NCBI RefSeq assembly: GCF_900232105.1
Contig: NZ_LT934425.1
Location: 2,940,001-2,972,000, forward strand
Length of the DNA: 32,000 nucleotides
Source: Candidatus Kuenenia stuttgartensis
Lineage (GTDB): Bacteria; Planctomycetota; Brocadiia; Brocadiales; Brocadiaceae
Direction: 5' to 3'
Shown: positions 7,014 through 10,958 of the stretch, one piece after another
How the letters are laid out: each line of letters begins with the position of its first letter
How positions within the stretch are numbered: position 1 is the first letter of the stretch
Notes under the pieces: generated by a model
The model's input: only the letters and a program-made list of their open reading frames with translations
Databases searched by the model: none
What the model was told of the DNA's origin: nothing
Made by a program: the position numbers and the translations under genes

Positions 7014-8999
7014 TCATTCAATCCATTCTGCTGGAATCAACTTTTTCCCATTTCGCCATTCCTCGACTTCATGGACACCTTCAATCCCACCATATATACT
7101 ATTGTCTGCATGATCAAGAATGATGCTTTGCCATGCGCCTTCTTTATCTAAAACCGATTTGGCGAGAGTTTTGAACATGCTCTTTACTGCGGCAACATCT
7201 TCATCACCCTCATATTTAGGATCATTTTCCACATTCTCAACACCTCTCTTTACTTTGGGGAAATATACCTGGCTGGGTTGATCAAAAATTACGAAACTAG
7301 GAACACACGATGTCGCTTGCTCCAAAAAATATTCTTGCAAAGAACACATTAAAGCAATATGAAAAGACACCCAGTTTGAAGCACTACCAACTTCAGCAAG
7401 AAAATGCCAATGACCATCATCACTCAGTACTGAAATATTTAAATCTTTAACACTAAATTTAGGGGCAATCTTTCGATACTTATCCTCTACATCCAAAGAC
7501 TTTAAATGGTTAAGAATCCCCTGAGAGATGTGGGCCGTTGCGTTGTCAATACGTCGTTGTACACCTTTGGGGTCGACCAAATTTATCAGACCTTTATATT
7601 CCTCTTGCAAGATGGATATATCTTTTTGAAACTCACCACCATCTGCAAGACTTTCAAATGTTTCCATAGATGCTTTTAAATGTCCAAGAAATAGAAACAT
7701 ATTTTTCCTGCGCTGAAATTCTTCCTGCGCTTTTTTATCCCGTGCCATCAACAAATCAAATCGTTTCTGATGCTTTTTCATTTGATCTAAAAGGTTCTTC
7801 AATTCAAATTCGATTCGCACTTCTTCTCTTGCAAATGAAGTAGGCACTGCCGCTACGCTTTTTGCTTCATCTTCATACTTCTTGAATGCAGAGGAAATCC
7901 TAAAAAATTCAGAGGTGCTATTGGGGTGTTCAGAACTCCCGCAGGCGAGACATCCCTGCGATTCTGATACTATATTTTCCAACCATTGTGAAATATGTAA
8001 TCTATCGACCCTCTTTCGCACAGAATTCCCATAATCGAGCAAGCTAGATTTTAAGCGTTGAACATCATTAAGTCTTTTTTTGGAAACACCAATCTCTGCA
8101 CTTATCCGTTCCTCTTCAAGTTCCAATTCTAAGACTTCTTTATTCGCCTTTTCGATATTTTCAAATTTTGTCTGCGAATGTTCAGGAATATGCTCAAAGA
8201 TACGTTTTGCCGCCGCTAACAAGTCTTCTGGGCTAGTCGCATCTGAAACATCTTCTTCCAGTATTCCATATTCCTTTGCTACTTTTATATGACCAAGCAT
8301 ATTAGCCATCCAGGAAGCAGATATTGCCTTAGATTTTTCAAACTCTCTCCTCAATTGGTTGAGCCGCTTTTCGACAATCTGAAGACGTTGTCTTGCCGTT
8401 AAAATTTCAATATTCTCTGCACCCAAGATGAAAGGAAACCAATTCCGCAACCGTTCCCGATGTTCATGTGCATGAGTTTTATAAAACAGTATGTTTTGAT
8501 TGGCCACAATGTCCTGGTTTTGAAAAACCAATGCCATCAGATCTCGAAACCCTAATCGAGCTTGATAAGCTCTTTCCCCATCCCCACCATCCAAGGGAAG
8601 ATAGGGCACAGATGAAATGGTGTTCAAAATATGCTTTACTCCGTCAGTGTTTTCGTTTGCCTTTTTGATTGCAGGAGGAATGCTTACTATGGATCCACGC
8701 AAAAGATAAAAATCATTTGAAACTTTATTGCCAAGAGGGATTTTTCGGGAAATCAGAATTTGTTCTGTTTCTGTTTGGAAAACAACCCCATACCAAGATG
8801 CATAATTACGAATAGTATCTATAGGTATAAAACAATCACTTGAAGCTAAACAATAATCAATAATTGGAATAATCGCAGATTTCCCTGTACGTGACGCCCC
8901 TGTTATGACGTTCACTTTTCCCGGTTTAAAGTCTACAATTCTTGGCGGAAATTCATCAGACCTTGGCCAAACGATTAATTTTAATAGTTGAAATTTCAT
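7014..8999 (-). CDS. lmuB: SMC/Rad50-like ABC ATPase (DUF3732-type): LmuB / ABC-3C ATPase / DdmC-like.
   Basis: 661 aa with these elements:
- Walker A GASRTGKS (8877-8900).
- About 350 aa of heptad-rich, charged sequence.
- A central CLAC at 7941-7952, which looks like a zinc hook.
- A C-terminal FVIFDQPSQVYFP Walker B (7272-7295) and ILDHAD.

The start ATG shares its A with the upstream stop (TGATG at 8997-9001). Confidence 0.85.
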   Translation of the reverse strand: MKFQLLKLIVWPRSDEFPPRIVDFKPGKVNVITGASRTGKSAIIPIIDYCLASSDCFIPIDTIRNYASWYGVVFQTETEQILISRKIPLGNKVSNDFYLLRGSIVSIPPAIKKANENTDGVKHILNTISSVPYLPLDGGDGERAYQARLGFRDLMALVFQNQDIVANQNILFYKTHAHEHRERLRNWFPFILGAENIEILTARQRLQIVEKRLNQLRREFEKSKAISASWMANMLGHIKVAKEYGILEEDVSDATSPEDLLAAAKRIFEHIPEHSQTKFENIEKANKEVLELELEEERISAEIGVSKKRLNDVQRLKSSLLDYGNSVRKRVDRLHISQWLENIVSESQGCLACGSSEHPNSTSEFFRISSAFKKYEDEAKSVAAVPTSFAREEVRIEFELKNLLDQMKKHQKRFDLLMARDKKAQEEFQRRKNMFLFLGHLKASMETFESLADGGEFQKDISILQEEYKGLINLVDPKGVQRRIDNATAHISQGILNHLKSLDVEDKYRKIAPKFSVKDLNISVLSDDGHWHFLAEVGSASNWVSFHIALMCSLQEYFLEQATSCVPSFVIFDQPSQVYFPKVKRGVENVENDPKYEGDEDVAAVKSMFKTLAKSVLDKEGAWQSIILDHADNSIYGGIEGVHEVEEWRNGKKLIPAEWIE

Positions 9000-9502
9000 C
9001 AGAATACCACCTTAAGATAAGCTGCAATAGTAGGCAGGTCGTGTTTAGAAAACCACTTCCCAAGAATCTCAGCCTTATTCCCATCATCCCTGATTTGCCC
9101 TTTCAAAGTTTTTTTGCGACCAGGGAGTTGTGTTAAATTGCGAGGATACAATTTGCCACTATCAGCATCCCAGACCATTAATCCTTCAGCAATAGCAATA
9201 TCAATTGCCGCCAAGGTATACTCACGCTTCTCTCTTGCCCGCTCCTGTATGGTTAACAATATGTCTGAGTCTTTTGAGACTTCAAAGCTACGAGCAAATG
9301 ATTGTAGATCGTTTCTTTTATTGCTTATTGGTTTAAGAAGTGTCTTATTCGTCAGTATGGCACTAGCCACAAAATGTAACAGCCCAATTGGAGCATCCCC
9401 GTGCGGATGTCCATTGCAGTATCCTTGAGTAAACCTCCAAAGCAAATAGGCACCTACCAGAGGAGTGTTCCAGAGTTTTACTTCCTCCACTAATTGTCCC
9501 AT
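8999..9502 (-). CDS. lmuC: Small middle component (LmuC / ABC-3C MC-like).
   Basis: The preferred start is ATG 9502, 6 nt after AAGGAGGA and 2 nt after the upstream stop (9505-9507). The track start at 9541 lacks an RBS. The N-terminus LWNTPLVGAYLLWRFTQGY...PIGLLHFVASAILTNKTLLKPIS fits my recall of ABC-3C middle components (N..LGA..L..F...Y ... lFlvlP.vLh). Confidence 0.65.
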   Translation of the reverse strand: MGQLVEEVKLWNTPLVGAYLLWRFTQGYCNGHPHGDAPIGLLHFVASAILTNKTLLKPISNKRNDLQSFARSFEVSKDSDILLTIQERAREKREYTLAAIDIAIAEGLMVWDADSGKLYPRNLTQLPGRKKTLKGQIRDDGNKAEILGKWFSKHDLPTIAAYLKVVF

Positions 9503-9504
9503 AA

Positions 9505-10662
9505 TCAATCCTCCTTTTGTTTTGGAAATAGTTTTTCCCAATTAGGATGCCAGCCAAGAACTGGTTTATTAGTCAGAGCATGATATGTCCCAGCGATCGT
9601 TGAGCATGGGGGCGACATATCTCTGATTGTTTCCGCCCTTGACTTACAATCTCTGAAAAGCAATTGTCCTTTATCTTCTTCACTTAAACTTTTTTCAGTA
9701 ATGTCTATTCTTATTCTTTGGTTTTTCCAAAAGTTATTTAACTTTGTCTCAAAATCAGAAGCAATATCTTCGTCAATGATGCCGCTCTCTATCCACCGTT
9801 CACGATTTACATCTGCTCTCAAAAAATCTGACACTGCCTCTAATATATCATCATCAGTAGTGCCGATTACATCAAGCTGTTTCAGATATACCGGACGAAC
9901 TTTTACCTGGCTTTGGATATCTTCGTCCTTTAGAGGATACTGCAATGTAAAATCAACAAGTTCTCGACAACGAGCACGATTAAACAGAACTAAAAACTGT
10001 TGATCAAATTTTTCCCAACTTATGATTGCTAGTTCCCGTGCTGCAATTTTTTCAGTGATTACTTTCTGTAACCAACCACTGATTTGATCCATAAGAAATT
10101 CAATTTGGCTTACTGGAACATGCTTGCGCCGAATTTCGTAGCGCACGTTATCATAACCAGTGTCACTTCCGATTTGAAGCTCAAATCTTTCCACAACTTT
10201 TACCAGCAAAGACTCGTTTTGATTAACCACTAAATCATAGTATTCCCAAATATCATGGTCCTTTTTTATATCATTAAGCACTTTTTTTGCGTCATCAATT
10301 GCAGATTGCGCTTCCTTTTGGTTTCGCGCAGAACTAAATTTATCGACAATACCGCTTCTTCCAGACTGATTACAATACAGGATAAATTTTGTTTTTCCTA
10401 CACCTAGGTTTCTACTTGTGATTGCTTTTATCCAATTTGAAAATGTTTTCCACAAATCGGTCGATTTGTCGGTCAGGGGATTTCCAACTATTGAAGATTT
10501 GTCTTCCTCGGTAATTACCCCTCCATCTGGTTTAAGAGTTGCTACATCGCCCCGAACTTCAACACAAACAGCATCGCCTGGGCCACTCCTAAGAAGGTGG
10601 TACAATGCACGTGGAAACTGAATTGTATACCCTAGTAACTGACCTGGTGCATTTGATTTCAT
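9505..10662 (-). CDS. lmuA: Effector protein: N-terminal PD-(D/E)xK (Cap4/DUF4297-like) nuclease domain plus a helical C-terminal ABC-3C/LmuA domain.
   Basis: QLLGYTIQFPRALYHLL...VCVEVRGDVATLKPDGGVITEEDKSS (10498-10560) carries E..GD...13 aa...E-D-K, which is a restriction-endonuclease-fold motif. The remaining ~300 aa are helical. I prefer the start at ATG 10662 (MKSNAPGQLLGY...); the ORF remains open to a TTG at 10791. Confidence 0.7.
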   Translation of the reverse strand: MKSNAPGQLLGYTIQFPRALYHLLRSGPGDAVCVEVRGDVATLKPDGGVITEEDKSSIVGNPLTDKSTDLWKTFSNWIKAITSRNLGVGKTKFILYCNQSGRSGIVDKFSSARNQKEAQSAIDDAKKVLNDIKKDHDIWEYYDLVVNQNESLLVKVVERFELQIGSDTGYDNVRYEIRRKHVPVSQIEFLMDQISGWLQKVITEKIAARELAIISWEKFDQQFLVLFNRARCRELVDFTLQYPLKDEDIQSQVKVRPVYLKQLDVIGTTDDDILEAVSDFLRADVNRERWIESGIIDEDIASDFETKLNNFWKNQRIRIDITEKSLSEEDKGQLLFRDCKSRAETIRDMSPPCSTIAGTYHALTNKPVLGWHPNWEKLFPKQKED

Positions 10663-10958
10663 TCGTATCCGCCTATTAGCATTCCAGAGAAGTCGCTGTC
10701 GTTTCACGAAGGTTGACCTATAGAGAAGGGCGCATTCCCAAATATTTGTAGATCCCCCATCCTTGTTCTCGATCTCCTCAGACTGGGTCAAATGGGCAAT
10801 TTTCCTCTATTTCGAGATATGCATTTCCTACTTTAATGGAAAAACAGTAATAAATAGGGCATGAAACAGGTAAAATATAAGGAGTTGCCACCACTTTTGA
10901 GATAACAAAGTTCATTTGACCCAGTCTGTGCGCGCCTTGCCTACAAGGAAAATGTTTT

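Follow-up and report, generated by a model that had tools for sequence, protein, structure and literature searches.

In a 32,000-nucleotide stretch of the Candidatus Kuenenia stuttgartensis genome (contig NZ_LT934425.1, positions 2,940,001 to 2,972,000; hereafter the window), it was found that three consecutive open reading frames (ORFs) on the minus strand form a compact operon with the gene order lmuA-lmuC-lmuB (Table 1). This was confirmed both in the ORF listing and by direct reading of the minus strand. The TGA stop codon of lmuA (9507-9505) is followed after a 2-nt gap by the ATG of lmuC (9502-9500), and a Shine-Dalgarno sequence (AAGGAGGA, 9516-9509) lies 6 nt before this start codon. 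At the next junction, lmuC and lmuB share a TGATG overlap at 9001-8997. Translational coupling of the three genes is evident from these junctions. Both of them lie where an earlier model-made annotation of the same letters (hereafter the original prediction) had put them. In NCBI/nr, LmuA is named 'ABC-three component system protein', and the middle component is named 'three component ABC system middle component'. Very probably, the three genes make up an anti-phage and anti-plasmid Lamassu operon that is complete, of the short ('type II') form and of the Cap4-CTD7-MC3 sub-family, acquired horizontally and with a mechanism that can be proposed by homology.

The LmuA protein matches the PADLOC LmuA profile (2.3e-51) and, with its C-terminal part, the Pfam family PF20283 CTD7 (2.1e-18, above the gathering score). 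The active-site motif of a PD-(D/E)xK nuclease lies in its N-terminal part. The original prediction had placed this motif at 10498-10560 with a spacing of 13 residues; on recomputation, EEDK does lie at 10498-10509, but VEVRGD occupies 10546-10563, with 12 residues in between. Residues G7, Q8, G11, Q15, E35, G38, D39, E52, E53, D54, and K55 are invariant in 40 LmuA homologues (58-89% identity), and in the alignment with Salmonella LmuA, K55 takes the place of the catalytic K68. The two Salmonella LmuA sequences on deposit are distinguished by this residue, which is Ala in 9hqx/9hr5; K68A is described as the catalytically dead variant (bioRxiv 10.1101/2025.03.14.643221). Since LmuA has no match to Pfam DUF4297 at E <= 0.1, the nuclease was assigned from the PDB alignment and a fold search. 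When an AlphaFold2 (AF2) model of LmuA (mean predicted local distance difference test score, pLDDT, 72) was submitted to Foldseek, LmuA structures ranked first with near-full-length alignments (9hr5, 4e-24; 9nxx). They were followed by Cap4 6vm5 (6.5e-5 over 245 alignment columns), HerA-DUF 9c1m, Hachiman 8zue, and Avs3 8dgc, at 6.5e-5 to 3e-4. Thus, the nuclease fold suspected earlier for this gene product is recognised by the fold search and the PDB alignment.

The middle gene product, LmuC, matches Pfam PF20131 MC3 (8.6e-19, above the gathering score) and PADLOC LmuC (1.4e-5). For LmuB, matches were obtained with Pfam PF12532 DUF3732 (1.6e-44, above the gathering score) and PADLOC LmuB (6.3e-113, residues 1-659), in agreement with the DUF3732/SMC-type ATPase proposed before. 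NCBIfam gave nothing informative for the three proteins, apart from a weak SMC coiled-coil match for LmuB. The Walker A, CxxC, and Walker B motifs of LmuB were recomputed, and their positions in the original prediction proved correct. Among 10 LmuB homologues, with identities as low as 33%, no substitution occurs at G34, K40, S41, C350, C353, G538, S539, D573, Q574, or H630; these positions include Walker A, the predicted CxxC zinc hook, the D-Q Walker B, and the H-loop His. Short LmuB proteins have zero, one, or two copies of the CxxC zinc hook at the apex of the coiled coil. The Lamassu motifs are defined as Gx4GK[S/T] for Walker A and hhhhD[Q/S/T/E] for the variant Walker B (PMC12663957), and the D-Q form is a Lamassu-specific variant (PMC12663957; bioRxiv 10.1101/2025.03.14.643221). 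In the Kuenenia LmuB, 527 residues separate Walker A from Walker B. Since the N-terminal head and the DUF3732 head fill much of this distance, the coiled coil with its hook is estimated to span residues ~190-473, or ~280 aa, rather than the ~350 aa proposed at first.

Where does lmuA start? The original prediction had chosen TTG 10791. By comparison with the homologues, the start is ATG 10662 (385 aa) and not TTG 10791 (428 aa), and the longer ORF is an open-frame artefact. This is because Met44 of the TTG-10791 ORF, which corresponds to ATG 10662, is where both the PADLOC LmuA profile and the PDB homologues start; most of the LmuA homologues listed are 381-385 aa in length; this ATG is invariant across an alignment of ten loci; and the DNA similarity to the closest loci ends at 10709, 47 nt upstream of it. 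The N-terminal extension of the longer product lies outside the block common to the relatives and is present in no homologue. The 385-aa product is also called in public assemblies.

In summary, the sequence features of this Lamassu sub-family were all found at the locus, namely a DUF3732 LmuB with Walker A, Walker B, and CxxC, a nuclease-CTD7 LmuA, an MC3 LmuC, and the operon order. The earlier reading as a Lamassu type II / ABC-3C / DdmABC-like system is upheld by Pfam, PADLOC, and end-to-end structure alignments. The operon is a new Lamassu member in a known family that has been solved structurally and mechanistically, and standard defence finders call it automatically.

Table 1. Coordinates of the Lamassu operon, its motifs, and neighbouring features in the window
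Feature	Position	Strand	Description
lmuA (KsCSTR_13080)	9505..10662	-	385 aa; N-terminal Cap4-type PD-(D/E)xK nuclease (predicted) and C-terminal CTD7 oligomerisation domain
lmuC	8999..9502	-	167 aa; ABC-3C middle component MC3
lmuB	7014..8999	-	661 aa; Rad50/SMC-like ABC ATPase, DUF3732 head
Nuclease active-site motif	10498..10563	-	E35-V-R-G-D39 ... E52-E53-D54-K55, numbered from the Met at 10662
CTD7 domain of LmuA	9532..9885	-	Residues 260-377; Pfam PF20283
Walker A GASRTGKS	8877-8900	-	LmuB residues 34-41
CxxC hook CLAC	7941-7952	-	LmuB C350-L-A-C353
Signature-like GSASNW	7371-7388	-	LmuB
D-Q Walker B FVIFDQPS	7272-7295	-	LmuB; FVIFDQ = residues 569-574
DUF3732 head	7035-7580	-	LmuB residues 474-655
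Conserved 5' leader with lmuA ribosome-binding region	10663..10709	-	47 nt; 87-98% identical to loci L007-L010; upstream limit of the horizontally shared cassette
Non-conserved upstream stretch ('leader' of the original prediction)	10710..11207	-	498 bp; two nested inverted-repeat pairs and hairpin 11119-11144
Outer inverted repeat	10732-10753 / 11165-11186		22-nt arms; repeat search
Inner inverted repeat	10779-10794 / 10913-10928		Perfect 16-nt arms; repeat search
Y1 remnant 1	11208..11442	-	IS200-like, Y1_Tnp and HTH; C-terminal residues ~276-322; right-end motif 11212-11235
Y1 remnant 2	6540..6994	-	Same element family; left-end half-site 6980-6994, right-end motif 6544-6567
cas1	30328-31323	-	Beside the CRISPR array
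cas4	31330-31881	-	Beside the CRISPR array

Is this operon found in other organisms? I scanned for related loci, with one genome per species, and found 11. The A-C-B order with overlapping or adjacent genes is kept in 10 of the 11, and these are all the loci that hold three genes; thus, the synteny anticipated for the operon holds in every complete locus (10/10). The eleventh contig, L014 (Elusimicrobiales), keeps lmuC-lmuB and ends inside lmuC, before lmuA is reached. The lmuACB loci come from Planctomycetota, Bacteroidota, Nitrospiraceae, Paenibacillus, Methylophilaceae, and Granulicella. Their flanks are unrelated, and the pgi and PMT neighbours are never in common. Across the 3,649 bp of the operon, metagenome-assembled genomes (MAGs) of Planctomycetota, Brocadiaceae, and (binned) Bacteroidota show 92-95% DNA identity, while 73-81% was obtained with Paenibacillus isolates and with one MAG each of Nitrospiraceae and Bacteroidaceae. 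The cassette extends to Firmicutes and further phyla, with proteins that are 64-76% identical. Plasmids of Bacillus thuringiensis and B. toyonensis carry an LmuB that is 66-70% identical, 92 plasmid records have a homologue, and the A-C-B arrangement is also present on Bacillus and Agrobacterium plasmids. Such a patchy and apparently horizontally spread pattern is what is expected of a defence cassette, and the 3.7-kb cassette (7014-10709) was most likely acquired horizontally.

Within the genus, the exact LmuB sequence is present in CP049055.1 of Candidatus Kuenenia stuttgartiensis CSTR1 (PMC7709395), and the LmuB sequences of six assemblies or metagenome samples agree at 100% identity, with 171 blocks listed in the sequence index. 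On contig L005 (GCA_021646445.1; 5908-7557 vs 8338-14207), the pgi product is 97.3% identical to that of the window, whereas the identity is 100% for LmuA, LmuC, LmuB, and the PMT-like protein. This contrast may reflect recombination with a boundary within pgi or close to it; alternatively, diverged Kuenenia lineages may have shared the Lamassu segment recently. A sister Kuenenia assembly, L003 (GCA_015075145.1, JABTUX010000001.1), has a 6,193-bp transposon (3757-9949) in the 3' end of lmuC. The insertion point corresponds to window ~9040-9045; the last 8 lmuC codons are removed, and lmuC and lmuB are separated. The transposon has 14-bp terminal inverted repeats (CGGATGTTCACCCC), its target duplication is TTCTAA, and it encodes Mu-transposase-C and AAA_22 (MuB/TniB-like) proteins. 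Judged from this insertion, L003 is a natural transposon knock-out of the Lamassu system.

The 498-bp stretch upstream of the cassette, where the original prediction saw an unusual structured leader, has no counterpart in any related Lamassu locus. Its predicted fold is weakly more stable than those of shuffles (z -1.83), driven by one 16-nt inverted repeat. At the gathering threshold, CRISPR repeats alone were matched by Rfam in the window, with none of the families matching the upstream stretch. A regulatory or structured leader RNA was rejected on these grounds. A 73-aa ORF that is called in CP049055 (10778-10999) overlaps the sequence between the 16-nt inverted repeats; it has no Pfam match, is conserved in Kuenenia assemblies only, and was treated as spurious. 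No further copies of the 150-bp span 10779-10928 or of 10710-11207 were found in ~45 kb of Kuenenia sequence searched. Short hairpins that contain GC and resemble each other in their loops (ACTCC or GCTCC) occur in intergenic positions at 11119-11144, 22591-22616, 22620-22645, 6617-6633, and 6640-6660. Window 11101-11146 shares 80% identity with 22589-22634, a stretch that immediately precedes the CRISPR array. These recurrent hairpins may be a REP-like (repetitive extragenic palindromic) repeat family of the Kuenenia genome.

How is the cassette placed in the chromosome? A direct repeat of 73/74 nt (6540-6612 and 11208-11281, 81% identical) brackets the operon. It was revealed that this repeat represents the 3' ends of two decayed IS200-like Y1_Tnp genes with a C-terminal helix-turn-helix (HTH) domain. 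In a tblastn search with an intact 322-aa relative (L095), residues 276-322 were found upstream of the operon (11360-11219) and residues 1-113, frameshifted, downstream of it (6958-6631). Remnant 2 matches Pfam Y1_Tnp weakly (E 0.0036), and the intact relatives match it at 3e-13 and 6.5e-12. The 24-nt terminal motif of the Y1 element, ATTCACTATTCAAGATGTGACACC, is retained in both remnants, and an inverted half-site of it lies 20 nt past the lmuB stop. Thus, the mobile-element debris mentioned in the original prediction is real, with two Y1 remnants identified by tblastn and motif search.

An empty site was found on contig L019, whose PMT/LamG gene is 95.5% identical in DNA to window 4850-6612. 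There, the 3' end of the Y1 gene directly abuts the PMT/LamG gene, and the Lamassu-bearing segment is absent. Since L019 joins the sequence of window 11354-11208 (L019 101-246) to that of window 6612-4850 (L019 174-1936), window ~6613-11207 is a ~4.6-kb insertion relative to L019. A pgi-PMT empty site was also sought in another Kuenenia species (L018) and was rejected; the PMT/LamG gene follows mnmG there because the gene order is rearranged. The Lamassu cassette is without a mobility gene of its own. To the left of the repeat, the L019 sequence corresponds to the upstream remnant; in the repeat itself and on the right of it, L019 corresponds to the downstream remnant. A single Y1 gene split by the insertion does not fit the order of the remnants (C-terminal part, Lamassu, N-terminal part). 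Because of this match pattern and this order, I tentatively consider a model, possible although rather doubtful, in which the cassette arrived on a circular DNA together with a Y1-HTH copy and entered by a single crossover in the 3' end of a resident Y1 element. If this is true, the widespread Y1 element family would be a landing pad or vehicle for defence cassettes.

The intact element is ~1 kb in length and widespread, and it encodes an IS200-like protein of 321-322 aa with Y1_Tnp and HTH domains (L090 5589-6614; L095 97-1126); further contigs with the element or its motif are L022, L033, L037, L039, and L045. The 24 nt of its terminal inverted repeat also encode the C-terminus of the Y1 protein (NSLFKM-stop). 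A metagenome scan with the 19-nt motif core matched at least 120 contigs, and in 95 of the 137 matches the motif extended beyond the query, by one base on the 5' side and five on the 3' side. Inverted motif pairs occur at 14 loci, either 30-85 nt apart or ~1 kb apart around a Y1 gene. By their arrangement, the doublets 30-85 nt apart, which occur in many metagenome contigs, are similar to REPINs (REP doublets forming hairpins) or MITEs (miniature inverted-repeat transposable elements).

Downstream of lmuB, a membrane protein of 576 aa (4793-6523, minus strand) has a weak PMT_2 match and is C-terminally truncated relative to 768-aa homologues. These homologues carry a LamG/Laminin_G_3 domain (P0121 94%, P0122 79%), and the similarity ends at 4850. 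Past this point, there are fragments of an ISAZ013 transposase (1322-2823) and the reverse transcriptase of a group II intron (3264-4160). A PemK toxin, an NYN-domain protein, and a protein with weak similarity to SLFN/AlbA_2 are encoded just past the mobile-element debris (window 667-1149, minus strand; L001 17851-20399). The wider region looks like a hot spot of defence and mobile elements. On the other side of the operon, the CRISPR array (22833-29923) has 107 copies of a 30-nt repeat (GTTTCAATTCCTCATAGGTAGAATGAAAAC), 106 of them identical and one with a single mismatch; thus, there are 106 spacers and not the 108 counted previously. This array is the large type I-B CRISPR locus that has been described for strain CSTR1 (PMC7709395).

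Does the operon really encode an immune system? It may be asked whether it is a housekeeping DNA-repair complex of the SbcCD/Rad50-Mre11 type, since LmuB is Rad50/SbcC-like with a predicted zinc hook and an ABC head, has a weak SMC coiled-coil match, and belongs to a family for which an SbcCD origin has been proposed (PMC12663957). However, the partners of LmuB are CTD7 and MC3 proteins, no Mre11/SbcD phosphoesterase domain was found in gene 1, gene 2, or their neighbours, and the Walker B is D-Q, not D-E. The cassette is also patchy across phyla, with up to 95% DNA identity and unrelated flanks, and it is missing from an otherwise 95%-identical relative, which is typical of accessory defence genes. 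A repair complex is thus highly improbable. It is scarcely credible that the operon is another defence system (CBASS Cap4, Hachiman, Avs, or HerA-DUF4297, for instance) with just the Cap4-type nuclease in common. Foldseek also retrieves 6vm5, 9c1m, 8zue, and 8dgc, but these matches are far weaker and partial, as against the near-full-length match to LmuA, and no SAVED, CD-NTase, helicase, HerA, or STAND domain was found in LmuA or the neighbouring genes. In particular, in CBASS the Cap4 nuclease is fused to a SAVED/CARF sensor and encoded beside a CD-NTase, whereas the C-terminal half of LmuA is CTD7 and not SAVED, and the window contains no CD-NTase. As for Wadjet (JetABCD), which consists of the kleisin JetA, the KITE protein JetB, the MukB-like JetC, and the Toprim protein JetD, no PADLOC Wadjet model was matched; the LmuA/B/C models and one marginal mad8 match (0.013) were the only matches.

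Several points weigh against a functional Lamassu system in Kuenenia. The identity to the characterised systems is just 32% for LmuA and 37% for LmuB, and therefore the trigger specificity could differ. The operon is broken by a transposon in one sister assembly, and thus the system is dispensable. The region upstream of the operon in the closest relatives, loci L007-L010, is conserved among them and carries a near-consensus TTGACA-17-TAATAT pair. The Kuenenia locus differs from these beyond 10709, and so the ancestral promoter region has been replaced. A promoter and terminator scan of 6400-11500 gave counts not above those of shuffles, although the sigma-70 scan models planctomycete promoters poorly. 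Transcription in Kuenenia is therefore unproven. A literature search found no report on phage or plasmid protection or on toxicity for this copy, and no expression data were found for KsCSTR_13060-13080, including in the portion of the PMC7709395 proteome table that was covered. The operon might accordingly be a silent or decaying relic, in which the genes are intact but the ancestral promoter was lost on insertion and no defence is provided. The replaced promoter region, the lack of a promoter-like site above chance, the pseudogenised mobile-element debris around the operon, and the tolerance of the sister strain for a 6.2-kb transposon in lmuC would all accord with this. Nevertheless, a relic is unlikely, as none of the three ORFs is interrupted and no catalytic residue is missing, the ribosome-binding sites and the translational coupling are preserved, and LmuB has stayed 100% identical across the six assemblies or samples. 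Moreover, the 498-bp replacement could hold a promoter. A complete, horizontally acquired Lamassu operon is thus the preferred reading.

In the Salmonella and V. cholerae systems, for which alone the LmuA1:LmuB2:LmuC1 complex and the LmuA tetramer are known, an LmuA monomer is held by the LmuB dimer and LmuC near the hook, and the complex binds double-stranded DNA ends. ATP-dependent changes free LmuA, which forms a tetramer via CTD7 and brings two Cap4-type domains together in one active site; its cut leaves a 1-nt 3' overhang, and the result is abortive infection or plasmid elimination (PMC12663957; bioRxiv 10.1101/2025.03.14.643221). As far as can be judged from the sequence, the features needed by this mechanism are all present in the Kuenenia operon. 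By analogy, two LmuB protomers would join at the CxxC zinc hook and bind one LmuC, and this assembly would hold one LmuA monomer via CTD7 with its nuclease silent. Free ends of double-stranded DNA from a phage or plasmid, or its replication intermediates, would be bound by the LmuB/LmuC heads. As the ATPase with its D-Q Walker B binds ATP and slowly hydrolyses it, LmuA would be released. The freed LmuA would tetramerise through CTD7, and two Cap4-type domains would pair into one active site (D39, E53, K55). This paired site would cut DNA indiscriminately, leading to cell death or arrest (abortive infection) or to removal of the plasmid.

With this assignment, genes of an industrially important anammox bacterium that were called 'hypothetical' or 'ABC-three component' would gain a firm functional label. 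Kuenenia has at least one predicted abortive-infection-type system beside a large type I-B CRISPR array, which is relevant to phage pressure and to plasmid-based genetics in anammox reactors. Lamassu biology itself is unchanged; the architecture, motifs, and gene order are as in the systems for which structures and an activation mechanism appeared in 2025. The modest extras are the clean empty-site comparison, the cassette at up to 95% DNA identity in Planctomycetota/Brocadiaceae MAGs, and the natural knock-out.

Finally, the operon was compared with known systems. Like SbcCD and Rad50-Mre11, the former being the proposed ancestor of Lamassu (PMC12663957), it encodes a coiled-coil ABC ATPase with a predicted zinc hook, of the type that recognises DNA ends. 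Unlike them, it has no Mre11/SbcD phosphoesterase, a D-Q Walker B, and a much shorter coiled coil, and its effector is predicted to be a sequestered Cap4-type nuclease. With respect to the ABC-3C systems (Pfam CTD7/MC3/DUF3732), the Kuenenia proteins match all three families above the gathering scores, and the operon is one instance of an identical architecture. The DdmABC system of Vibrio cholerae El Tor corresponds to LmuACB ('Lamassu Vc-Cap4'; 9nxx, 9ny1, 9ny5, 9nyg, 9uxh-9uxl; PMC12663957) and has the same sub-family and gene order as the Kuenenia operon. The alignments are full-length (LmuA 3.7e-34, LmuC 3.7e-9, LmuB 3.1e-100), and it is likewise a short Lamassu with a variant Walker B. 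In contrast to the Kuenenia LmuB with its invariant CxxC, the V. cholerae LmuB is without a zinc hook (PMC12663957), and this system is more distant from the Kuenenia operon than the Salmonella system. The LmuACB system of Salmonella enterica serovar Tennessee (PDB 9hqu, 9hqx, 9hr5; bioRxiv 10.1101/2025.03.14.643221), which like that of V. cholerae was solved by cryo-EM, has the same proteins, order, and domains in a different host, Kuenenia being an anammox planctomycete. The Kuenenia LmuA, LmuC, and LmuB are 385, 167, and 661 aa in length, and the Salmonella chains have 403, 164, and 660 residues. LmuA aligns with 9hqu_C at 3e-55 (residues 2-378, 32% identity over aligned columns), LmuC with 9hqu_D at 3.5e-11, and LmuB with 9hqu_A at 1.1e-131 (residues 1-660, 37% identity over aligned columns). 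The middle acidic residue of the nuclease differs (E53 in Kuenenia LmuA, Q66 in Salmonella LmuA), while both LmuB proteins have the D-Q Walker B and a single CxxC at the aligned position (CLAC in Kuenenia, CPMC in Salmonella).

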